From Patescibacteria group bacterium (GTDB taxonomy: Bacteria > Patescibacteriota > Patescibacteriia > Magasanikbacterales > UBA922): 64,000 nucleotides of DNA. Where the stretch lies: the NCBI GenBank assembly GCA_018823045.1, contig JAHJIX010000013.1, forward strand, positions 21,125 to 85,124. Direction: 5' to 3'. Under the pieces are notes generated by a model. It did not search any database, was not told the origin of the DNA, and saw only the letters and a program-made list of their open reading frames with translations. A program made the translations under genes and the position numbers. Shown one piece after another: positions 7,557 to 61,088 of this stretch; position 1 is the first letter of the stretch, and every line of letters begins with the position of its first letter.

Positions 7557-8627
7557 TTACTCTTCAACAACTTTGCCAACGGCAAGTTGTCCTTCCTTTA
7601 TTTCATCAGGCCAAGTATAATTTTCAAATGCCCAATTTGCAGCATCACGCGCTTCAGTAAAACGAGCCGTATGACTTTCTGTTCCAAAAGCAATAACATG
7701 AACAACGTGACCAAATTCATCAGCAACATCACACACAAAATTATATCCAGCTGCAGGAATATACCCTGTCTTTCCTCCAATAAATTCAGCAAAATCATTT
7801 GGAATCCAACCGAGTAAAATCCAATTGGTATTCCACATGTGATGTGATTTATCTCTTTTTTCTGAATACAATGTATATTCTTTTGTCAATAACGCATCTT
7901 TAATCTTTTCATGACGGAGTGCCTCTTGTAATAAAATAGATATGTCAGATGGAGAAGAAACATTCCTACTATCAAGCCCAGTCGGATCAGCAAAATACGT
8001 ATCCCCCATCCCCAACTCATACGCTTTTTCATTCATACGCGCAACAAATGCTTCCCGTTGCCAACCAACAGCATCAGCTAAACTCATAATTGCTTTATTT
8101 GATGAAGCTACTAATGCAGCATACCATAATTCCTCTAGGGTGTATACATCACCAGCATACATATGTGCATCAGATAAATCTTCTGAAACAACAGTCGTTG
8201 TGCTTGTCCAATCAGGATCTTGTTCTAATAACAATAGTGCACTCATAAGTTTGGTAATACTTGCAATTGCTTGTACACCATATTCGTTTTTAGCTAACAA
8301 TACCATTCCTGTTTCAGCATCTTTTACCAACAATCCTTGTGCAGTAAACTCTTCTACATCAAGCATTTCTTCTCCCGTAAATTCAGGAACTGGTGGCGCA
8401 ATAACCGGTAATTCAACTACAATATTTTTTTGTGGTTCTTTTTGTATTGGTTTATTAAATGAAAACGGTAACATCGACTCTCCCAAATACGTAATAGGCT
8501 CAACTGTCAATTGCCCCATATAATAAAATGACACTCCAGCAAAACCGGTCATAATAAATAATCCCACAAGCAATGTCTTTACAAATGATGAGAGTGGTTT
8601 TTTCTTTGTATGTGAAAGATGAAACAT
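7557..8627 (-). CDS. D-alanyl-D-alanine carboxypeptidase (peptidase S11, PBP5-like), membrane anchored
   Basis: SxxK (ASITKLM), SxN (ASSNKA) and KTG (GGKTGY) motifs; N-terminal TM helix. Confidence 0.85.
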   Translation of the reverse strand: MFHLSHTKKKPLSSFVKTLLVGLFIMTGFAGVSFYYMGQLTVEPITYLGESMLPFSFNKPIQKEPQKNIVVELPVIAPPVPEFTGEEMLDVEEFTAQGLLVKDAETGMVLLAKNEYGVQAIASITKLMSALLLLEQDPDWTSTTTVVSEDLSDAHMYAGDVYTLEELWYAALVASSNKAIMSLADAVGWQREAFVARMNEKAYELGMGDTYFADPTGLDSRNVSSPSDISILLQEALRHEKIKDALLTKEYTLYSEKRDKSHHMWNTNWILLGWIPNDFAEFIGGKTGYIPAAGYNFVCDVADEFGHVVHVIAFGTESHTARFTEARDAANWAFENYTWPDEIKEGQLAVGKVVEE

Positions 8628-8630
8628 AGC

Positions 8631-9167
8631 CTATATATCAGATAATGTTTCTTCAATATGTGCGTGTTGGTGTAACTCATTATATTCTGGTAACTGCTCC
8701 TGACCAGTAATGCCCAAATGTGCCAAGGCTTGAGTTGATAATTGATATACTGGCAATAATTTTTCTTCATCTTCTAATTCGATAATTACATCACGCATGA
8801 GCAAATTTCTTAAAATAACAGCACAATTTACCCCACGAATTTGCTCTAACTCTGGTCGGGTAATTGGTCCTCTATATGAAATAATCGTCAGTGTCTCTAA
8901 CTGCGCTTTTGTTAATTCTCCCCCAATATCATAAGAAATAAATTGATCAACAACATCAGCATATGTCGGATTAGTCCCCATATGAACACGATCTTCTACA
9001 ACAAACAAATGAATACCAGAAGCATCATGATTATATTTTGTTTCAAGTGTTTGAATACTTTCTTCTACATCAGCATACGCACGACCGGTGGCCTTTGCAA
9101 GTGCCGTAAATGACAATGGTTTTGATGCAACAAATAATATACTTTCAAGTGCGGCGAATAATTCCAT
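8631..9167 (-). CDS. scpB: segregation and condensation protein B
   Basis: 178 aa; ScpB winged-helix repeats (ISYRGPITRPELEQIRGV). Confidence 0.85.
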   Translation of the reverse strand: MELFAALESILFVASKPLSFTALAKATGRAYADVEESIQTLETKYNHDASGIHLFVVEDRVHMGTNPTYADVVDQFISYDIGGELTKAQLETLTIISYRGPITRPELEQIRGVNCAVILRNLLMRDVIIELEDEEKLLPVYQLSTQALAHLGITGQEQLPEYNELHQHAHIEETLSDI

Positions 9168-9170
9168 AGT

Positions 9171-9863
9171 TTAAACGTTAGAGACAATAATATCTTCAAA
9201 ATTCCCAGATTGAGTTAAGTGAATACTCCGTTGCTTGACCAATTCAAGTAATGCTAAAAAACCAACAATCATCTCTGTTTTATTTTCTGTATGTGTAATA
9301 ATATCTTGAAATCGTATTCTTTTTGTTTTTTTCAACAATGCTCTTATATGATCAATTTTATGTTTCATACTCACCTGTCGATCAATTTGCACCTGTGGTA
9401 ATGCCTTTCTTGGTGCCAAACGATGAACCAATTGCAACATTGTTTGATGCAACTCACTTTGAACTAAACGCTCAGGTAATGGTCGATCTATACGAATATG
9501 CATTGGCTCTGTACGAAACACCCCATGTGCCTTATCTTGCCACTTCGCTTCAATAACCTTACTTGCTTCAACAAATTGTTGATATACACGCAACTGTTCT
9601 TCTAAACTTGTTTCATCTTCTTGTTCAAAAGAAAATTGCGGTAATAACATCTTTGATTTTAACAATACCAATTTAGCAGCAATAACTAAAAAGTCCACTA
9701 ATTCATCGGCATCAATTTCTTCAAGTGTATCGACATAGCACAAATACTGCTCGGTTACTTCAGATAAAGCAATATCTGTAATGGTCATCTTTTTTTCTTG
9801 AATCAAAGAAAGCAACAATGCCAAAGGCCCACTAAATTGTCCAGTCGAAAAAGAGACTTCCAT
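9171..9863 (-). CDS. scpA: segregation and condensation protein A
   Basis: 230 aa, ScpA family, directly upstream of scpB. Confidence 0.8.
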   Translation of the reverse strand: MEVSFSTGQFSGPLALLLSLIQEKKMTITDIALSEVTEQYLCYVDTLEEIDADELVDFLVIAAKLVLLKSKMLLPQFSFEQEDETSLEEQLRVYQQFVEASKVIEAKWQDKAHGVFRTEPMHIRIDRPLPERLVQSELHQTMLQLVHRLAPRKALPQVQIDRQVSMKHKIDHIRALLKKTKRIRFQDIITHTENKTEMIVGFLALLELVKQRSIHLTQSGNFEDIIVSNV

Positions 9864-9899
9864 GTCATCTTGTACTTAAATATAAACCAAAATGTATCA

Positions 9900-11642
9900 C
9901 TATTTTACTACATTTTCTTCATTCTGTACATTGTTCGCATAGGTAAAAATAGCATAACGCTCTGAACGATATATTTCAATAAAATATGAAGATTCAAATA
10001 ATTCTTTAGAAAACCAAATAGTATCCCCTCTCAGTGTCCCAGGGAAATCATCTAAATCAAAAATCAGTGGATAGCCTGCATCTTCTTTAGCATATAATAC
10101 GAAATAATCAATATCTTTGGTTTTATCATATGAATAGAGCATGTCAAAGGCTTTATCAATATTTTTCTCTTCTGCAATACTATTTAACATATAATATGTT
10201 TCAGAAAATTGCGCTGCTGGATGTGAATTATGTTGATTAAAATACAACACATCATCATAAGTTAAAAAGGCATGTAATTCAGGAAGTCCACTTACCATCA
10301 TTTTTGGAGTAGCAGTCACTGTATCGCCAAAAAAATCAAGCAACTCAACAATATCTGCTTTATTGTGTATTGATCTTTCATATATACCCAATACATTTTC
10401 ATCATCAGCAAAAGTCCCAAATATACTTGTTGGTACAAATAAAAGTAATGCACATAACCCAACATTTTTTTGTGTTATATGTTTCCACTTCTTTTTTTCT
10501 AATAATAAATACCACTGTGCAAGTGCATATGCTGCAGCTAATGCAAGAATCGGTGTATTAAAAAAGAGGAATCCTTTTGCTTCTTGCATAGGAGAGGCAA
10601 AAAATAATACCATTACCATCCCCATAATTTGCCACAAATTACCAGCCACAAACAATGATAAAAGAATACGGATATACATAACTTTTCTATATATAATCAA
10701 AGAAAGTAAACCAACGAAAGCCACCAGCCCACTTAAGCTCAAAGAAAATAACGGTATTGAAGTTGCAATACCTTCGATGGTAAATAATCCTAACTGCCAA
10801 TTTTCAGAACCATAGAGATAATATGATTGTATCAGTGGAAGTAAAAAAATAGAACCAATCGCCAAGACAATACTCCCGACAAATGCAAACAACGCATAAT
10901 CTTTTAGACGAGTCTTTTTATTATTAAACAGATGAAAAATAGCAACACCCAGAGCAGCAAGCGCAAACCAAAAATAAAAGAGAAGAAACAGAACTCCTCC
11001 ACTACAACCGTAGACAAGCACTCGTTTCCAATTCATGCGTGCATAATATATATCTCGAGCTAAAAAGACACTCCACAAAATAACCCCAACCCCACTCACT
11101 AATTCATATGGTTTATTTATATTTGAGGCCCAAGGAATAAGCATGAACACAAGAAGTACTCCCAACATCCAGGCAACGGGAGCTACTTTTTTTTTCTCAT
11201 CTTTCCAATACCAGGCTTGTACGGCATACATCATAATAGGGAAAAATGCAAAAGTAACTGCTGTCCCTACTTTTGCCATTTGTACCCCATTTAAATGCAT
11301 AAACCGTCCAAAGATCGCAATGATTTGAAAAAATAATGCAGGATAAAATGCAGGTAAATAACTATAGGCAAAATCAGAAAACATTCCTTTATATGCAAAG
11401 CCTTGATACATTGCAGCAATAGTAATTTCATCTCCCTTTAAGCCCCAAAAAGATAATTGAGTCCCATGCACTAAGGCAGCATAACCCAATGCAGTCAGTC
11501 CACCAAACACAATAAGAAATATAGATGGACGCATTTTTTTATATATTGCAATAATTCCAAATACAAGTAAAACAAAAAACAGCAATTTAATAATAATTAA
11601 TTGCTGTATTTGTGGATATGACAGTAGTATATCCATATACAA
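9900..11642 (-). CDS. large polytopic membrane protein with C-terminal soluble domain; possibly GT-C-like glycosyltransferase (uncertain)
   Basis: 580 aa, roughly 12-13 predicted TM helices, no recognisable motif. Confidence 0.35.
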   Translation of the reverse strand: MYMDILLSYPQIQQLIIIKLLFFVLLVFGIIAIYKKMRPSIFLIVFGGLTALGYAALVHGTQLSFWGLKGDEITIAAMYQGFAYKGMFSDFAYSYLPAFYPALFFQIIAIFGRFMHLNGVQMAKVGTAVTFAFFPIMMYAVQAWYWKDEKKKVAPVAWMLGVLLVFMLIPWASNINKPYELVSGVGVILWSVFLARDIYYARMNWKRVLVYGCSGGVLFLLFYFWFALAALGVAIFHLFNNKKTRLKDYALFAFVGSIVLAIGSIFLLPLIQSYYLYGSENWQLGLFTIEGIATSIPLFSLSLSGLVAFVGLLSLIIYRKVMYIRILLSLFVAGNLWQIMGMVMVLFFASPMQEAKGFLFFNTPILALAAAYALAQWYLLLEKKKWKHITQKNVGLCALLLFVPTSIFGTFADDENVLGIYERSIHNKADIVELLDFFGDTVTATPKMMVSGLPELHAFLTYDDVLYFNQHNSHPAAQFSETYYMLNSIAEEKNIDKAFDMLYSYDKTKDIDYFVLYAKEDAGYPLIFDLDDFPGTLRGDTIWFSKELFESSYFIEIYRSERYAIFTYANNVQNEENVVK

Positions 11643-11645
11643 ATA

Positions 11646-13409
11646 TTATTCTTTTATATCAATTGCAATAGACAATTCTTGCAATTGTTCATGTGGCATA
11701 ACTGAAGGAGCTCCCAACATAAGATCTTTTGCTTTTTGATCTTTCGGAAAAGCAATTACTTCTCGAATATTAGGCTCACCAGCAAACAGCATAACTAAAC
11801 GATCAATTCCCCAAGCAATACCACCATGTGGCGGAGCACCATATTCAAATGCTTCGAGCATATGCCCAAAACGTGCTTGTGCTTGTTCATCAGAAATTCC
11901 TAACACATCAAACACACGTTTTTGCATACCCTTATCGTGAATACGAATAGATCCCCCACCAATTTCATTTCCATTTAGAACCATGTCATATGCTTTTGCG
12001 AGTGCCTTTTCAGGACTGGTTTCCATGTCTTCGATATTTTTTGGTGATGTAAATGGATGATGTTTTGCTTGAAAACCCATTGTCTCATCATGCTCAAACA
12101 TTGGGAAATCAGTTACCCAACATAATGCAAAGACACTGTCATCTCGAAGTCCTAATTGATCAGCAACTGCTAAACGAACATGCCCTAACGCATCACAAGC
12201 AATATCCCAAGTGTCAGCAGCAAATAACACAATGTCGCCTACTTCTGCTCCAGATTCTTTTATGATAACTTGTAATTCTTCTTCTGAAAAAAACTTTGCA
12301 ATTGGAGAACGTACACCTGCTTCTTCGACAAACAAATAAGCTAATCCTTTTGCTTTATAAATCTTTGCAACATCAGTTAATCTATCAATATCTTTACGAG
12401 AAAATTGTGCCCCACCTTTTACGCAAAGTGCTTTTACCACTCCACCTTGCTCAACTGCACTTTTAAATACAGAAAACTCAGAATCTTTTACTTTTTCACT
12501 TATATCTACCAATGGTAAATCAAAACGAATATCTGGTTTATCACTCCCATACGTATTCATTGCATAAGCATAGGTCATTTGAGGAAATGGCACTTCTTTT
12601 ACTTTTTTCTCTGGTGCAAATGTTTTAATCAAATCAAGCATGAGTGATTCATTTAACTGCATCACATCACTTTCTTCAACAAAAGACATTTCCATATCAA
12701 GCTGCGTAAATTCAGGTTGACGATCTCCGCGTTGATCTTCATCACGAAAACAACGAGCAATTTGGAAATATTTATCTAAACCAGCGACCATCAACAACTG
12801 CTTCATTTGTTGTGGAGATTGTGGCAACACATAAAAATTTCCTGGATACAAACGAGATGGTACCAAATACTCTCGACTTCCTTCGGGTGTTCCTTTTACT
12901 AAAATTGGTGTTTCAATCTCAAGAAAATCAGCCTTCTCCATAAAATCACGGATGGCTTTTACCATTTTTGTGCGAAGAATAATATTATTTTTCAACCGTT
13001 CACGACGAAGTTCTAAATACCGATATTTTAACCGTAATTCCTCATCTTCTTCTCCCTTATCTGTTTCAAATATTTCAAATGGCATTGGTTTTGACGTATT
13101 CAACACTTTTACGGTACTTGCATGAATTTCAATCTCTCCTGTTTTTAAGTCATTGTTCACCGCCTCAATATCTCGATCAACGACAATTCCTTCTACTTGA
13201 ATTACATACTCATACTTGAGTGTATCAACCACAGCAAAATCAGCCCCTGTTTCCTTATTGAATACAACTTGTACTCGCCCATATCTATCACGTAAATCAA
13301 CAAATACTAATTCACCAAAGTTTCTTCTTTTGTGTACCCAACCAGAAAGAGTCACGCTCTCGCCGACTTGTGGTTTACGCAGTTCCCCGCATGTATGAGT
13401 TCTCAACAT
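11646..13409 (-). CDS. aspS: aspartyl-tRNA synthetase (bacterial type with GAD insertion)
   Basis: 587 aa; N-terminal OB fold; class II motifs FRDE and GGGSIR; canonical AspRS start. Confidence 0.95.
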   Translation of the reverse strand: MLRTHTCGELRKPQVGESVTLSGWVHKRRNFGELVFVDLRDRYGRVQVVFNKETGADFAVVDTLKYEYVIQVEGIVVDRDIEAVNNDLKTGEIEIHASTVKVLNTSKPMPFEIFETDKGEEDEELRLKYRYLELRRERLKNNIILRTKMVKAIRDFMEKADFLEIETPILVKGTPEGSREYLVPSRLYPGNFYVLPQSPQQMKQLLMVAGLDKYFQIARCFRDEDQRGDRQPEFTQLDMEMSFVEESDVMQLNESLMLDLIKTFAPEKKVKEVPFPQMTYAYAMNTYGSDKPDIRFDLPLVDISEKVKDSEFSVFKSAVEQGGVVKALCVKGGAQFSRKDIDRLTDVAKIYKAKGLAYLFVEEAGVRSPIAKFFSEEELQVIIKESGAEVGDIVLFAADTWDIACDALGHVRLAVADQLGLRDDSVFALCWVTDFPMFEHDETMGFQAKHHPFTSPKNIEDMETSPEKALAKAYDMVLNGNEIGGGSIRIHDKGMQKRVFDVLGISDEQAQARFGHMLEAFEYGAPPHGGIAWGIDRLVMLFAGEPNIREVIAFPKDQKAKDLMLGAPSVMPHEQLQELSIAIDIKE

Positions 13410-28440: not shown

Positions 28441-29037
28441 TTATTCCTCTAATTCTATCCTTCGACGACGTTCATCAAGAGTCTCCCCTTCATACATCCA
28501 ATACACTGTTCCTTGTACTTGATATTGATATCCCAATAGCTTTTGTGCAGAAGCCGAAGGGCTTGTAATTTCTCCATCAAATTCAATCAATCGTTTATCA
28601 ACAACCTTTGCAGTTATATTTTCATCATTAACAAAAACAAGTTCAGCTCCAACAGGTATATTTGCCATTTTAAAATTAAAAACAGATCTTCTTGTACGTG
28701 CTTGATTGAGAGCTTGTTGATCTTCTACCGATTCTACATAATCTTGCTTTGGTGTAACATTTTCTATTTCTGCAAGTTTAAGTGCTGATACCACTCGTTC
28801 AGGAGACAATTCAAAGAACTCTCGATTTGATCGTACTCGTAAATCAAGAAAAGCATCATGAAGTTGTTTTTCTACAAATTGTGAATCACTCACAGTACAA
28901 GCATAAAAACACTCAAAAGGAAGAGGTACACTGGTATTATCAAGAGTACGGATTCGTTGTTCTAAGTTTGTTGTTCGTCCTATTTTGATATAGCCAGGCA
29001 TGGCTTCGTTTATGAGGAGGTAGATTATTTGGGGCAT
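28441..29037 (-). CDS. T5orf172 (GIY-YIG-like, MUG113) domain protein
   Basis: IYLLINEAMPGYIKIGRTTNLEQRIRTLDNTSVPLPFE matches the T5orf172 core; 10 nt downstream of res. Confidence 0.7.
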   Translation of the reverse strand: MPQIIYLLINEAMPGYIKIGRTTNLEQRIRTLDNTSVPLPFECFYACTVSDSQFVEKQLHDAFLDLRVRSNREFFELSPERVVSALKLAEIENVTPKQDYVESVEDQQALNQARTRRSVFNFKMANIPVGAELVFVNDENITAKVVDKRLIEFDGEITSPSASAQKLLGYQYQVQGTVYWMYEGETLDERRRRIELEE

Positions 29038-31764: not shown

Positions 31765-31892
31765 AAGTTATTTTTTCTAATATTTTTTTCTCTAGCTAAT
31801 TTAAAACTAGTTTAAATTAAAAGATAGACCTTAATTTAGATAAAAAACACACTCTCTAACTAATCTCTAACTAATTCAGATCTAATTTTGAA

Positions 31893-32420
31893 CTAGTTTA
31901 AATCTAAATTATTTATAATTTTTTCAACGAAAACAGTGCAAAAATGTAACATATTAATAAATATTTCCCAATGATTAAATAATGTATCAAATATCACCAA
32001 AAACAGAACTCCTAAAAAAATCTTTAATTTAAACAAATTATATAACTTTTGAAAAATAGTATTTATAATTTCTATAAAATCAAATCTATACTCATCTATT
32101 TTCTTTACAAAGATTCTTCCAATAACTAAAGAACCAATTAAAAAAACATATTCTTTCATATTTACATTTCCTGTTTTAGATAAAGCAGCAATAATAACGT
32201 ATCCAACAAGAATTAAGACAAAAGCAGATGTTGAAAAATTTCTATTAACAGTATTTATAAAATTTTCAGGAACACGACTCCAATCACCCCCAGAATAACC
32301 AGAAGGAAGCTCCTCTGCAGGAGCAGAATCAACAGCTGTAATATTTCTATTGTCTAAACCCAGAGGCACAAAATCTCGCAAATCATCGTAACCTATCCCT
32401 CTAGTTTCATTATCATCCAT
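31893..32420 (-). CDS. hypothetical 3-TM membrane protein embedded between mod and res
   Basis: 175 aa; soluble N-terminal ~60 aa then three hydrophobic helices; no homology recognised. Confidence 0.5.
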   Translation of the reverse strand: MDDNETRGIGYDDLRDFVPLGLDNRNITAVDSAPAEELPSGYSGGDWSRVPENFINTVNRNFSTSAFVLILVGYVIIAALSKTGNVNMKEYVFLIGSLVIGRIFVKKIDEYRFDFIEIINTIFQKLYNLFKLKIFLGVLFLVIFDTLFNHWEIFINMLHFCTVFVEKIINNLDLN

Positions 32421-32426
32421 ATCTAC

Positions 32427-33200
32427 CTAATTATCTAAACTAAAAAAATAATCAATAAATCCTTTAAATTTTTTTTCTATACTAGAACTACTCTCAAGAG
32501 CCCATTCTTTCAACTTATCTAAATTGTCAAAATTTAAATCTTTTTGACTTAAATCAATATCAAAATAGATACCACTCTTATGATTAAAACTATCATATAA
32601 ATCATTTTTAAATATTTTACTGATAACCTCATTCTTAGTCATAGGTCCTGTAGTAAAATTAACAAATTTTGCATCACTTTGCATATTTATTGCTAAAAAC
32701 CCAGTATCTACTATTTTTCCACCCATTTTCTTTTCTATTACACCTGAATCTTTCAACATTATGTTTTTATAAATACTTTTTACTTCATCTACACCAATTC
32801 CATATTTATGATAAAATATAGAACTTTTTATTCCTATCCGCGAAATATCACCAACTTTATATTTTTTAAATTCATCTAAAATTTCAAAAAGTTTATTTAT
32901 ATAATCTTTAAAATCTTCAAAATCGTTACTAACCTCTATTTGTAATCCAAAGTTTTCCCAACTAAAAAATAAAATTTTATCAAAATTATTATTTGCAATA
33001 TCAAACCGTGAACCAGTCAATTTAAGATTTTCCCAATCCATTTTCTTTATAATATAATCTCCCATTTCTCCTTTATAATCCATAAAAGTGAGATTTCTAT
33101 TTTTAAACCGTATTTCAAATGTATGCCTAGCAATAAAATGATCTTTTTGCTTTTTACCCATAAAAATAAAATTATATAACCTTAAAATCAATCTTTGCAC
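32427..33200 (-). CDS. hypothetical cytoplasmic protein embedded between mod and res
   Basis: 257-aa ORF (likely start MGKKQKDHF near 33161), K/D/F-rich, no recognisable motif; overlaps mod stop. Confidence 0.5.
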   Translation of the reverse strand: MQRLILRLYNFIFMGKKQKDHFIARHTFEIRFKNRNLTFMDYKGEMGDYIIKKMDWENLKLTGSRFDIANNNFDKILFFSWENFGLQIEVSNDFEDFKDYINKLFEILDEFKKYKVGDISRIGIKSSIFYHKYGIGVDEVKSIYKNIMLKDSGVIEKKMGGKIVDTGFLAINMQSDAKFVNFTTGPMTKNEVISKIFKNDLYDSFNHKSGIYFDIDLSQKDLNFDNLDKLKEWALESSSSIEKKFKGFIDYFFSLDN

Positions 33201-35163
33201 TTGCCATTTGCAAAAATGTATTTTTCTTTAATTGATCAAGTGCACCAAAAGCTTCATCAAGACATATAAATTTTTCTGGTTTACCTGCCAAAATAGCATC
33301 AATTAAATTTTTATTCACTCCATTTTCAAGACAAATAGCTAATTTACCATTATTAATAGAAAAATAACTCGTATTTCCAACATCCTTCTTTTCAACAGAT
33401 ACATTCAAATCTAAACCACTTTTCAAAACTAATTCATACAAAATGTTTTCTTGTGTAGAATCTTCTTTCACATTATCTACAAAAAAATCCATTTGTCTCA
33501 ATAATTGTTCTACATCTTTTACATCATTTCTCCAAATCTTGAAATTACTTTCTTCAAGTTTGAATACTTTAAAACCAAGATCAAAAGTATCATCTAATTG
33601 CTTTTCTTCTTTTATTTTCTTTCCAGCACGTCGAATACGTTCTTTTGCAATATCAGCAATTGTTTTATATCCTGCTTTATAAGCTTCACTTTTTTCATCA
33701 CAAAGTTCTGGAAGTTGCACAGATATACACTTACGATTTCCACCATGTTCAGCATTCAGTGCCATTACTGCGTGTGCTGTTGTTGCTGAACCTGCAAAGA
33801 AATCTAAAATCATGTCACCATCTTGAACTACAAAATTACATAATCTATTTAAAATATTAATTGATTTAGGGTTATTAAAAACTGATCTACCGATAAGATT
33901 ATCGACAATTTTAGAAGAGCTTCTACCATCCTCATAAATCATTGTTTTTAATGCATCCCTTGCATTTTCTAATCTTTTTTTAGGCTTAATAAGTACATTA
34001 TGATCTACCCCAAAAAGGATATTATCCTCTTTTATCATATTATCTAAAGTTTCTTTGGGAAACCTAAATCCTTTATCAGGAATTTTACAAACTTTTCCCG
34101 TTTCAGGATGAATAACATCATATCGATAACCTCCAAATTTTGTATTTGCAATATCACCATCATGAAAAACACCTCTTTTATCTACATTATCATAATGAGA
34201 AACTTTAGGTAATTCATTTTTATGTTCTTTTATCCATGTCCGTAATTCTTTTTGAATTAAATTTAAATTATTAATATATTTTTGTTTTAACTCATCATAC
34301 TTAATTTGTATTTTTAAAGCATTGTTATTTTTTCCAATCCAAAAACCCTGTTTAATTTTATCCTTAGCATAACAAATAATATATTCATGTTCAGTATTAA
34401 TTTGAGTTGGATTATTATCTGTAGCTGTTTGAATTATTAAACTACCCAAAAAATTCTCCTCCCCAAATATTTCATTCATTATCATCCTCAAATTATGTAC
34501 CTCATTATCATCAATACTCACAAAAATCACCCCATCGTCCTTCATCAAGTTTCTCGCTAAAAAAAGACGTGGATACATCATATTAAGCCAATCAGAATGA
34601 TAATGTCCTCTATCTTTTGAATTTTTCATCAGCCCATCATTCCTATAATTTCCTTCATCATCAACAATTCCAGCATCTTCCTCATAATCTGACTTTTTTT
34701 GTTTGAAATTATCATTATAAATAAAATCATTTCCTGTATTATACGGAGGATCAATATAAATCATCTTTACCTTTCCATAATACGATTTTTGCAAAACCTT
34801 TAAAACATCAAGATTATCTCCCTCAATAAAAAGATTTTCTGTTGCATCAAAATTCACCGACTCTTCTCGAATAGGTTTTAAAGTTGAAGTTGTAGGTTCT
34901 TGAATTACACGAAAACAATTACTTTTCCCTGCCCAATTCATTCCATATTGTTCTATATTCATCTCTACCTCATCTCCCAAGGTCTGTTTCAACCTATCAC
35001 AATCTATTTTACCTTCTGTAAAGATTTCGGGAAATTTTTCTCGTATCATTGCCAAAAGTTCTTCTTGAGCATTAAGTGATTTTCCATTCATTGTATTGTT
35101 TTTCATACTAAAATATTTCAATTTGTATAAATATAGAATAACGCGTATTCCACGGATTGTCAA
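33172..35163 (-). CDS. mod: Type III restriction-modification methyltransferase Mod (N6-adenine)
   Basis: DPPY motif IYIDPPYNTGNDF; SAM-binding region; likely true start MKNNTMNGKS at 35106. Confidence 0.85.
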   Translation of the reverse strand: MTIRGIRVILYLYKLKYFSMKNNTMNGKSLNAQEELLAMIREKFPEIFTEGKIDCDRLKQTLGDEVEMNIEQYGMNWAGKSNCFRVIQEPTTSTLKPIREESVNFDATENLFIEGDNLDVLKVLQKSYYGKVKMIYIDPPYNTGNDFIYNDNFKQKKSDYEEDAGIVDDEGNYRNDGLMKNSKDRGHYHSDWLNMMYPRLFLARNLMKDDGVIFVSIDDNEVHNLRMIMNEIFGEENFLGSLIIQTATDNNPTQINTEHEYIICYAKDKIKQGFWIGKNNNALKIQIKYDELKQKYINNLNLIQKELRTWIKEHKNELPKVSHYDNVDKRGVFHDGDIANTKFGGYRYDVIHPETGKVCKIPDKGFRFPKETLDNMIKEDNILFGVDHNVLIKPKKRLENARDALKTMIYEDGRSSSKIVDNLIGRSVFNNPKSINILNRLCNFVVQDGDMILDFFAGSATTAHAVMALNAEHGGNRKCISVQLPELCDEKSEAYKAGYKTIADIAKERIRRAGKKIKEEKQLDDTFDLGFKVFKLEESNFKIWRNDVKDVEQLLRQMDFFVDNVKEDSTQENILYELVLKSGLDLNVSVEKKDVGNTSYFSINNGKLAICLENGVNKNLIDAILAGKPEKFICLDEAFGALDQLKKNTFLQMASAKIDFKVI

Positions 35164-35226
35164 ACCTATAAAATGCTAAATTAAGATAAAAAAATGATAT
35201 TAGATCTATCATATTTAACAAAATAC

Positions 35227-35255
35227 TTGACAACTCAAGTACTTTACAATATACT
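35227..35255 (+). promoter_or_regulatory. sigma70-type promoter (TTGACA-17-TATACT) for the MarR gene
   Basis: TTGACA 35227-35232; TATACT 35250-35255. Confidence 0.5.
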
Positions 35256-35289
35256 AAACATATACTTGACTAATCAACTAATAATTATT

Positions 35290-35724
35290 ATGAATAACAC
35301 AAACCTCAACACACTCCTTCACCTCAATAAAGCACACACCGCCCTTACCAAACGATTTGATCGTGGTATGGGCAATGGTATTGGATTTAACGAATTTCTT
35401 ATTCTCTTTTATATTCATCAAGCAGACAATACACAACTCCGCCGAATTGACCTTGCCGAAAAAATAGGAATTACGGCATCAGGCATTACTCGCCTCCTCC
35501 TCCCTATGGAAAAGATAGGGCTTATACAAACAGTCGCAAATCAAGGAGATGATGCACGAGTACGTATGGTAAAAATAACAAAAGGAGGAAAAGAAAAAAT
35601 GAATGAAGCACAAGAGCAACTTGATCTCTTTCTTGCAGAAGTATTTAAATGTATTGATGATAAAAATAAAGAGCTCCTTTCTGACATGCTTATACAGATA
35701 GGTGGCAAAGCGTTGATGCTTTAA
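35290..35724 (+). CDS. MarR-family transcriptional regulator
   Basis: Winged-helix region LRRIDLAEKIGITASGITRLLLPMEKIGLIQT. The annotated ORF begins at 35194, but ATG 35290 (MNNTNL) fits the promoter. Confidence 0.7.
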   Translation: MNNTNLNTLLHLNKAHTALTKRFDRGMGNGIGFNEFLILFYIHQADNTQLRRIDLAEKIGITASGITRLLLPMEKIGLIQTVANQGDDARVRMVKITKGGKEKMNEAQEQLDLFLAEVFKCIDDKNKELLSDMLIQIGGKALML

Positions 35725-35752: not shown

Positions 35753-36808
35753 TTACTCCTCTCCCTCCAATACCCTCTTGATCTCCCGGTCAAAATCTGA
35801 CTCAAAAAGTCTATCCTGCACAATTCTATATTTTTCAAATTGTGTTTCTGCATGTAACTTAGCTTGTTCACGACTCATCTTTCCACTATTCATCAAAATT
35901 TCTCTGTCATTAAATTCTAAAAAAGAATCAAGCCTTTTGCTCCAATCTTCCATAGTCATCGGAATATTTCTCTCTGCCTGCATTTCTGCATAATCCAAAT
36001 ACATAGAAACAAGTCTTTCGAGAAAATTTATTTCTTTTGAATTGAGGTAATTCTTTGCGATACTTACATCATATTTTTGAATTTTGCCATTTGGGGCATC
36101 AGCCCAACTGGTCAATCCCATATTTTCTTTTTCTGCATTCGCTCTTTCAACAATCAACTCTGCAGCGGTATGCCTATGTACTGCATAATGTAATTTATTT
36201 TGAACAATTTTAAAAAATGTTATTGTCGTCGGAGCAGAAGAATCATAATCAACACTCATGGCATAGATATCTGTTACTTTTTGGTAAAACATTCTTTCAC
36301 TCAATCGAATTTCTCTAATTTTTTGCAATTGACGCTCAAAAAAGACTTTATCAAATTGATTTGCTTTTTTGAGCCTCTCAGTGTCCATCGTCCACCCTTG
36401 AATCGTGTAATCTTTTACTATTTGCCTTGCCCATTTACGAAATTGCACGGCTCTTTCATTTTCTATTTTGAATCCAATAGAAATAATTGTCTGAAGATTA
36501 TAATGTGTTGCATTGTAATTTTTTCCATCAGAAGCAGTTATTAAGTATTGCTTAATAACTGCTTCATCAATTTCATTATCATCAGAAAGCCTTTTTAAAT
36601 GCTGATTGATTGCAGACACAGAAACTCCATACATTTCTGCCATCATCTTTTGAGTCATCCATATATTTTCGTCTTCATATCTCACTTCTATACTTTCAGG
36701 ATCATTCCCAGTAGAAGACACAAAAGTCAAATACTGTGCAGTACTTGCTTGTATCACTTGTGGAAATGATTGTTTCTTTTCTTTTTTTGACATAAAAAAT
36801 ACTGGCAT
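35753..36808 (-). CDS. RhuM-family protein (virulence/defence-island associated DNA-binding protein)
   Basis: N-terminal ENIWMTQKMMAEMYGVSVSAINQHLK and conserved core typical of the RhuM family. Confidence 0.7.
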   Translation of the reverse strand: MPVFFMSKKEKKQSFPQVIQASTAQYLTFVSSTGNDPESIEVRYEDENIWMTQKMMAEMYGVSVSAINQHLKRLSDDNEIDEAVIKQYLITASDGKNYNATHYNLQTIISIGFKIENERAVQFRKWARQIVKDYTIQGWTMDTERLKKANQFDKVFFERQLQKIREIRLSERMFYQKVTDIYAMSVDYDSSAPTTITFFKIVQNKLHYAVHRHTAAELIVERANAEKENMGLTSWADAPNGKIQKYDVSIAKNYLNSKEINFLERLVSMYLDYAEMQAERNIPMTMEDWSKRLDSFLEFNDREILMNSGKMSREQAKLHAETQFEKYRIVQDRLFESDFDREIKRVLEGEE

Positions 36809-60510: not shown

Positions 60511-61039
60511 TCTTTTTTCTGCAGATGATCGCTTGAGCCTATATGGCTTGAGAGGAAAGTCCGAACTTCCTCTGACTTGTCAGAGTCATGGTAGTGGCTA
60601 ACGACCACCTCTCTATTTGTGAAAATATGAGACGGGAAAGTGCCGCAGAGACTATACTCGTTTTGCATAACAAAACGACCCTGAGTCTGCCGAAGGGTTT
60701 CAACCAATCGAGCAGAAGCATTATATCAGAGTTATTTTGTTATGCAAGACAAAAGGTGAAAAGTGTAGAGATATTTTTATTCTATAGATAAAAGTTACTC
60801 TACTCGATTATATGGCAACATATAATTGTGGTAAACCCTACCTGGAGAAAGAGCAGCCTTGGCTTCACTTCATTACGCCTCGTTTACAAAACGTAGCATA
60901 GATGCACTGTTTACAGGGCGCAATGAAGTGAAGCCCTGGAAAAGTTCGCTCGTTAGAGCAAAATAGCAATGTTTTGCCTAGAGAAATGATCATCACCTGC
61001 ATAGCAGGAACAAAATTCGGCTTATAGCAGAAAAAAAGA
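60511..61039 (+). ncRNA. rnpB: RNase P RNA (type-B-like features) carrying a long expansion hairpin
   Basis: P4 strands GAGGAAAGTCCG (60551) and ACAAAATTCGGCTTATAGC (61007-61025); GGGAAAGTGCCGCAGAG module (60643); P1 pairing cttttttctgc / gcagaaaaaag; own promoter and terminator (61041-61076). Confidence 0.8.
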
Positions 61040-61088
61040 CAAAAAAGCAGCAAAATAGTAATTTGTTGCTTTTTTGTACACAAAAGAA

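Follow-up and report, generated by a model that had tools for sequence, protein, structure and literature searches.

A conserved gene pair found between mod and res of Type III restriction-modification operons in Patescibacteria

Accessory modules embedded in restriction-modification (RM) operons are known from several systems. The anticodon nuclease PrrC, embedded in the Type Ic RM locus EcoprrI, is the precedent for a guardian of an RM system (PMC12707154), and TgvAB are encoded by two genes embedded in a Type I RM operon of Vibrio cholerae VPI-2 (PMC11411939). A guilt-by-embedding survey by Payne et al. in 2024 validated seven embedded systems; it was made on Hma, BREX, DISARM, and Type I RM and did not extend to Type III (bioRxiv 10.1101/2024.01.29.577857). 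Characterized Type III enzymes need Mod and Res alone (PMC3333885), and in the literature that we searched, no paper describes genes between a Type III mod and its res. Here we analyze two genes, A and B, that occupy this position in a 64,000-nt stretch of DNA from a Patescibacteria group bacterium (assembly GCA_018823045.1, contig JAHJIX010000013.1; hereafter the window, to which coordinates refer, on the minus strand unless stated). An earlier note on this DNA had pointed out two unannotatable genes between the mod and res genes; the open reading frames are indeed there, and scans of Pfam, NCBIfam, PADLOC, and PHROGs gave no family match for A or for B. Both protein families are undescribed. 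We find that A and B are a conserved, selected, and mobile two-gene module that occurs repeatedly inside Type III RM operons.

The pair resembles PrrC in that it is accessory to, lies inside, and is probably co-expressed with an RM operon, and in the conceptual model of a second-line response once a phage defeats restriction (PMC12707154). PrrC, however, is a single ABC-ATPase/anticodon-nuclease protein from a Type I locus, whereas A and B belong to two unrelated, unannotated families, include a membrane component, are associated with Type III enzymes, and are also found without any RM system. Neither ABC-ATPase nor anticodon-nuclease domains were detected in A or B with Pfam, NCBIfam, or PADLOC, and A is predicted to form a TBP-like β-saddle, not a P-loop fold. 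The likeness to TgvAB is that an RM operon is split by two genes to which no function had been assigned before; TgvAB act jointly and independently of the RM system (PMC11411939). They are, however, GmrSD-like Type IV restriction proteins (DUF262/DUF1524), whereas no nuclease or NTPase signature is present in A or in the membrane protein B. The HEC and PDC families from guilt-by-embedding analysis are, like A and B, uncharacterized genes inside multigene defense systems. Recurrent nesting of uncharacterized, nonmobilome genes in such a system is what we observe here, at 13 loci and in two Type III subfamilies, and neither A nor B contains a transposase or integrase domain (Pfam). The window and its relatives also carry PDC-S05, PDC-S13, and PDC-S57, although A and B themselves match no PADLOC v2.0.0 model. 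A cytoplasmic component encoded in tandem with a small multi-transmembrane (TM) protein is also the arrangement of Kiwa (KwaA/KwaB) and of TM-effector variants of CBASS, Pycsar, and Thoeris. The pair differs from these systems in gene order and sizes, has no PADLOC match to them, and contains no cyclase, TIR, SIR2, or DUF4868 domain.

Conserved pairing and genomic settings of A and B

We recovered 17 distinct loci, counting identical contigs once. A homologue of B is the next gene after A in all 15 loci where downstream DNA is visible, and the A-B junctions range from an 11-nt overlap to a 6-nt gap. The pairing holds where A is only 30 to 38% identical to the A protein of the window. The partners of these distant A proteins match the B profile at 27 to 32 bits (local hmmsearch) and keep its build, with a hydrophilic tail of ~45 to 65 aa, an F..S..V...GY[IV].I..FG motif in the first TM helix, and three hydrophobic helices. 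Conserved pairing in other genomes was one of the tests that the earlier note had set for its proposal, and the pair passed it strongly: a soluble and a multi-TM protein strictly co-occur, in one predicted transcription unit, at 15 of 15 loci.

Both A and B are genuine genes under purifying selection, as judged from the ratio of nonsynonymous to synonymous substitution rates (dN/dS) in comparisons whose synonymous sites are unsaturated. This ratio was 0.054 for A (L005 versus L012), and for B it was 0.18 in the same comparison and 0.14 between L007 and L008. Between the window and L001, the dN of A equals that of Res (0.207 versus 0.210), with Mod at 0.31.

The pair directly follows a Type III mod gene, or a remnant of one, at 13 of the 17 loci, and these belong to two Type III subfamilies; the other four loci are stand-alone. 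Homologues lying mostly outside defense settings were to count against the proposal of a nested cassette, and this distribution speaks in its favor. Eleven loci (the window, L001, L004 to L009, and L011 to L013) share the Mod/Res lineage of the window, L013 being placed there tentatively from a 12-residue C-terminal fragment of Mod. Across related loci of this lineage, Res is 58 to 70% identical and Mod 47 to 58% identical. In L020 and L021, A (37 to 44% identical) and B lie between the Mod and Res genes of a second Type III subfamily. The best PADLOC models for these two loci are PDLC03633 and PDLC03648, as against PDLC03634 and PDLC03647 for the window lineage, and BLAST aligned their Mod and Res with the window enzymes at 21 to 35% identity over short motifs only. 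In a neighbor-joining tree of A, built without support values, the two embedded groups fall in different clades, and the stand-alone L014 lies beside the second group. Because the two embedded groups belong to different Type III subfamilies and different A clades, the mod-A-B-res arrangement either arose at least twice or is ancient; it has been kept either way.

The stand-alone copies are found in L014/L015, L016/L017, and L018/L019, where no Mod or Res gene lies within 8 kb of the pair, and in L022, an A-only fragment that lacks a mod gene upstream. The pair in L014 has a serine recombinase and an SNase-LTD gene nearby, and a tRNA-Gln lies 440 nt away in L016. In L018 (6716-10658), A and B share a block with a convergent DUF4238 gene, whose family is reported to be a single-gene defense system, and with a serine recombinase adjoining tmRNA and smpB; this block is a compact island integrated at ssrA, a classic island site. 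No match for A, for B, or for a TIGR04255-like member (see below) was found in phage and plasmid records (tblastn) or in scans of IMG/VR, at the sensitivity used.

One further locus preserves the pair in a ruined operon. In L009 (1-2620; also L010), mod is a frameshifted remnant of ~200 nt that joins aa 34 to 64 to the C-terminal ~45 aa, and only the last 29 codons of res are left. Intact copies of A, B, and a Bro-N gene are present, and A retains its conserved residues. Because mod and res have decayed at this locus while A and B have not, the pair outlives the RM system that housed it. The start of the L009 contig resembles a tRNA 3′ end by eye; ARAGORN calls none.

The A and B protein families

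Gene A had originally been described as encoding 257 aa in tight overlap with mod. Both the length and the overlap are artifacts of taking the longest open reading frame, which begins at a GTG codon inside mod. All homologues of A are 243 to 244 aa long, with start codons that correspond to the ATG at 33161 (MGKKQKDH...); A is therefore 244 aa long, begins 10 nt past the mod stop codon, and does not overlap mod.

Close relatives of A number 5 among 5.8 billion clustered proteins. An exhaustive profile search extended the family to 180 cluster representatives at E ≤ 1e-3, all of them 225 to 255 aa long, and those that were looked up are nearly all metagenomic singletons. For B, the same 5.8 billion clustered proteins hold one relative besides B itself, and a B profile adds four. 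The named sources are Patescibacteria and Peregrinibacteria metagenome-assembled genomes.

AlphaFold2 (AF2) modeled A with a predicted local distance difference test score (pLDDT) of 77 and a predicted template-modeling score (pTM) of 0.77. In this model the secondary structure runs b-a-b-b-b-b-a and then b-a-b-b-(a)-b-a, and A is predicted to fold as two TBP-type repeats that form one antiparallel sheet backed by helices, that is, as a TBP-like duplicated β-saddle. A TBP-like fold was taken to consist of two tandem S1-H1-S2-S3-S4-S5-H2 repeats with a curved antiparallel sheet and significant similarity to TBP-fold structures. The nearest structural matches of A include TBP and the RepD/RepDE replication initiators, and none was informative. 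Comparison of the A profile with PDB sequences found no relative, the best match being a de novo design (E = 0.54). Across 99 A-family members, R108, G110, and D203 are invariant, and E16, R18, D28, G31, F65, G72, D152, and G172 are at least 90% conserved. In the predicted fold, the conserved residues sit on the strand that opens each repeat and on neighboring strands, so that the sheet may bear a patch for ligand binding or catalysis.

The profile and structure searches for which the earlier note had asked yielded no family match and no informative structural relative; what they did yield is a link to the TIGR04255 superfamily. NCBIfam describes TIGR04255 as a "sporadically distributed" uncharacterized family without known function, and no paper in the literature that we searched mentions it. 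The A protein of the window does not match the TIGR04255 hidden Markov model (HMM) at E ≤ 1 and does not reach its curated 30-bit cut-off. Six of the 99 A-family members match at E ≤ 0.01. The distant member P0089, which the A profile matches at 4.8e-10, scores 33.4 bits against the cut-off of 30 in a colinear alignment and is labeled TIGR04255 by IMG. The two families share a length of ~230 to 250 aa, colinear similarity, and the motifs E-x-R, D-x-[KR]-G, R-[IV]-G, G-P, and D-x-D. Judged by these sequence features, A is a divergent branch of the uncharacterized TIGR04255 superfamily; because the link is transitive, through P0089, A is a relative and not a member by the model threshold. Other identities suggested when the 99 members were scanned one by one against Pfam and PADLOC were single chance-level matches and were discarded, leaving the TIGR04255 link alone. 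We likewise rejected a fused domain in P0026, an A-family protein of 332 aa with an 89-aa N-terminal extension (…SSNGRTEAFGAFNLGSIPS…). The extension looks like tRNA-gene read-through; if so, this A gene also adjoins a tRNA.

The prediction of B as a three-TM protein of 175 aa is supported by both hydropathy and the AF2 helices. Its layout comprises an acidic, disordered N-terminal tail (residues ~1-46), an amphipathic helix (~47-62), and TM helices at ~63-83, 92-110, and 136-156. The AF2 model of B is poor (pTM 0.25), with disorder over residues 1-49, an amphipathic helix at 47-61, and helices at 64-80, 88-110, 115-149, and 151-173. Summed over 14 family members, the charges are +8/-16 in loop 1, +50/-27 in loop 2, and +76/-137 in the acidic tail. 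With a negative net charge on loop 1 and a positive one on loop 2, positive-inside considerations predict that loop 1 is outside, loop 2 inside, and the N-terminal tail cytoplasmic. The extreme N-terminus of B, M-x4-5-T-x-G-I (~10 residues; 32391-32420 in the window), is kept in 14 of 14 aligned members, the most distant partners included, and the rest of the ~50-aa tail is highly variable. This stretch is a candidate short linear motif and, as such, a candidate docking site for A.

Operon anatomy and the slot after B

The features of the window operon and the genes found in the corresponding slot of related loci are collected in Table 1. Mod shows the DPPY and FAGS motifs in its sequence, as befits the β-class N6/N4 DNA methyltransferase of a Type III system, and Res combines an SF2 helicase/ATPase with a C-terminal PD-(D/E)xK endonuclease (Pfam ResIII and RE_endonuc). 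The adjacency of mod and res that is expected of Type III RM is broken by A, B, and the spacer (1407 nt in total), and the same interruption is present in 12 other loci. The GC content of the res-to-mod block is 0.23 to 0.30, versus 0.30 to 0.38 in the housekeeping flanks, which fits an acquired island.

Table 1. Positions of the operon features in the window and of the genes between B and res in related loci (locus coordinates where a locus is named)
Feature	Coordinates	Strand	Evidence or remark
RhuM-family gene upstream of operon	35753..36808	-	Pfam Virulence_RhuM 2.6e-103; PADLOC defense candidate PDC-S05 8.6e-140
Divergent MarR-like gene between RhuM and mod	35194-35724	+	
Promoter-like site TTGACA-17-TATTCT upstream of mod; candidate operon promoter	35135..35163	-	consensus scan, 10/12 match
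Type III RM methyltransferase mod, 644 aa	33172..35106	-	PADLOC MTase_III PDLC03634 6.7e-199; Pfam N6_N4_Mtase 4.2e-35
Gene A, 244-aa cytoplasmic protein	32427..33161	-	homologue-based ATG start
Gene B, 175-aa membrane protein	31893..32420	-	three TM helices
B-res spacer, 128 nt	31765..31892	-	27-nt direct repeat (31796-31822 / 31882-31908)
Type III RM restriction subunit res, 905 aa	29047..31764	-	PADLOC REase_III PDLC03647 6.8e-288; Pfam ResIII 2e-13 and RE_endonuc 8.6e-39
T5orf172/GIY-YIG-like gene directly after res	28441..29037	-	Pfam T5orf172 8.5e-17; PADLOC defense candidate PDC-S57 1.4e-72
B-res slot gene, L001	4937-5740		
B-res slot gene, L004	3260-3460		
B-res slot gene, L006	1420-1515		
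B-res slot gene, L007	548-1375		
B-res slot gene, L008	967-1809		
B-res slot gene, L009	1716-2561		

The gap between mod and A is 10 nt and that between A and B is 6 nt; the latter, like the length of the B-res spacer, had been read correctly at the outset. Because neither a terminator nor a good or strong promoter was called in the spacer, transcription could plausibly start at a promoter upstream of mod and continue as far as res. The promoter-like site upstream of mod is a candidate only, as the total count of sites of this type in the region does not exceed that of shuffled sequences. A search of mod for phase-variation repeats found none.

The repeats reported in the spacer are real. A 27-nt direct repeat (31796-31822 and 31882-31908) is identical at 23 of 27 positions, a level reached by 0 of 300 dinucleotide shuffles. 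The two copies bracket most of the spacer, and the second overlaps the stop codon of B; the repeat is a duplication of the B 3′ end. An exact 11-nt × 2.1 tandem (TCTCTAACTAA, 31853-31875) is found between them. There is no room between B and res in L005 and L012, where the two genes overlap. A Bro-N/DinD-like gene stands between B and res in L007, L008, and L009 and, judged from fragments, in L004 and L006; the two of these genes that were scanned (L007 and L008) match the PADLOC candidate PDC-S13 at 1e-111 and 1e-115. The gene at the same place in L001 is unrelated, encodes 267 aa, and is unannotated. The spacer of the window corresponds to the slot where relatives carry a variable third gene, and it may be a scar left by recombination at a hotspot for insertions. 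We rejected the ideas that it is the remnant of a lost Bro-N gene or of the 267-aa third gene, for which tblastn gave no match, or a structured RNA, for which the folding score was not significant (z = -0.05); nor does the spacer contain a credible small open reading frame.

Several neighbors of the related operons may be recorded. In L001, an HTH_3 and Peptidase_M78 (ImmA/IrrE-like) pair lies upstream of mod (952-1780), and the region downstream of res (8393-13112) holds an unassigned 253-aa gene and DUF2779, GIY-YIG/DUF4357, Peptidase_S24, PemK, and Zeta-toxin genes. A LexA-like repressor gene (LexA_DNA_bind and Peptidase_S24) is found directly upstream of mod in L012 (2518-3135) and hints at SOS-type control. 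Directly downstream of res in L007 (4095-5678) is a PIF1/AAA_30 helicase gene with weak UvrD_C and WYL signals. Elsewhere in the window, a bacterial class A RNase P RNA (60513-61040) scores 162 bits; because its 528 nt span a model of 367 positions, it carries sizeable insertions.

Possible functions of the pair

The reading that we favor, at a probability of about 0.5, is that A and B constitute an extra, second-line antiphage module of the abortive-infection or growth-arrest type, embedded in the RM operon. It is the most economical one, with precedents in PrrC, TgvAB, and the guilt-by-embedding survey, and it draws by analogy on embedding and architecture. Abortive-infection systems are commonly built from a soluble sensor and a small membrane effector. 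A defense setting is further supported by the slot after B, which accepts PADLOC defense candidates, and by the presence of PDC-S05 and PDC-S57 in the window island. According to this proposal, an autonomous and horizontally mobile pair would have become lodged in the Type III operon after mod and before res and would be expressed together with the RM genes. A would serve as a cytoplasmic sensor or regulator, its TBP-like saddle presenting the conserved polar cluster of E16, R18, D28, R108, D152, and D203. The acidic tail of B would face the cytoplasm, where A could hold or release B, and B would act as the membrane effector, its three TM helices perturbing the membrane once triggered.

Several observations weigh against a defense role. 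Comparison of A, B, and the 99 A-family members with PADLOC revealed no defense link by homology: A itself found just Csm3 in PADLOC-DB v2.0.0, at E = 0.02, which we regard as noise, B found nothing, and the 99 members gave two isolated chance-level Cas matches and nothing meaningful. The neighbors of the pair in L016 (CHAP and unannotated genes) are not recognizably defensive, and a small TM protein with a soluble partner is the layout of many non-defense modules too. In addition, the loci used for context represent the nearer part of an A family of at least 180 clusters, with the distant TIGR04255-like members outside the sample. Of the nested, co-regulated defense cassette put forward in the earlier note, the nesting and the probable co-transcription are supported, and the cassette has proved to be autonomous, while defense or abortive infection remains an analogy, with neither a defense-HMM match nor an informative structural relative behind it.

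The same note had offered, as an alternative, an accessory pair that modulates Type III restriction, an idea now weakened by the stand-alone loci and by L009. More generally, A and B might be functionally coupled to Type III RM, either as a guardian of Mod-Res that fires when a phage inhibits restriction or as an accessory that tunes, delays, or localizes restriction, for instance as a membrane tether near the site of DNA entry. Such coupling, which we hold to be unlikely, would account for the identical position of the pair after mod and before res at 13 of 17 loci, in two subfamilies whose Mod and Res share ~21 to 35% identity over short stretches, and for the two embedded groups falling in different clades of the A tree. 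It would also agree with the tight gene junctions and with the co-divergence of A and Res at the same rate, and PrrC in EcoprrI provides a precedent (PMC12707154). However, the tree carries no support values and would also be compatible with ancient co-divergence instead of repeated capture, and characterized Type III enzymes need just Mod and Res (PMC3333885). Four loci lack RM, over 8 kb in L014, L016, and L018 and by the absence of mod upstream in L022, and the survival of an intact pair after the loss of mod and res in L009 is awkward for an obligate partner or for a guardian that fires when RM disappears. In a stricter version, A would dock on Mod-Res, or read its DNA-translocation or cleavage state, and gate B as a membrane effector. 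That the pair is a Type III-specific partner of this kind seems quite unlikely; the idea stays alive because of the same-position embedding in two unrelated Type III subfamilies.

It is also conceivable, though doubtful, that A and B form a non-defense module that hitch-hikes in variable regions, such as a membrane stress or transport pair, or a toxin-antitoxin-like addiction pair that stabilizes islands or operons. The layout would fit a toxin in the membrane and its antidote in the cytosol, islands that bear integrases carry the pair with them, and the lack of any defense signature, in the pair or among its neighbors in L016, is what such a module would show. RM operons and islands often carry addiction modules, and L001 has PemK and Zeta toxins as well. 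Neutral hitch-hiking, however, hardly explains repeated, position-specific embedding in Type III operons or the retention of the pair across 55 to 66% divergence at the rate of Res. Typical antitoxins are far smaller and less conserved than A, whose invariant polar cluster points to ligand binding or catalysis, and the pair was not found in plasmid and phage collections, where addiction modules abound. Finally, the pair could serve a mobile element by excluding competing elements, or control DNA uptake or transfer in episymbiotic bacteria of the Candidate Phyla Radiation (CPR), with the saddle of A binding DNA. The strand-helix order of A as two TBP-type repeats, its nearest structural matches (among them TBP and RepD/RepDE), and the location of stand-alone copies next to serine recombinases and tRNA or tmRNA sites are consistent with this explanation, which we nonetheless judge to be very unlikely.

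Nested accessory genes in defense operons have repeatedly proved to be new immune systems, and the systematic surveys so far have been made without Type III RM. For A and B the comparative evidence is unusually clean, combining strict pairing, purifying selection, embedding in Type III operons of two subfamilies, and persistence of the pair where RM has decayed. The hosts are candidate-phyla bacteria, in which phage defense is almost unexplored, and A provides a first biological handle on the orphan TIGR04255 superfamily. If the pair does act in defense, both its sensor fold and its small membrane effector would be new. Coupling to Type III restriction, if real, would make it the first known partner of this kind, and a Type III-specific partnership would make it the first Type III guardian or second-line trigger, the first defense module defined in CPR/Patescibacteria, and the first function for the TIGR04255 superfamily.

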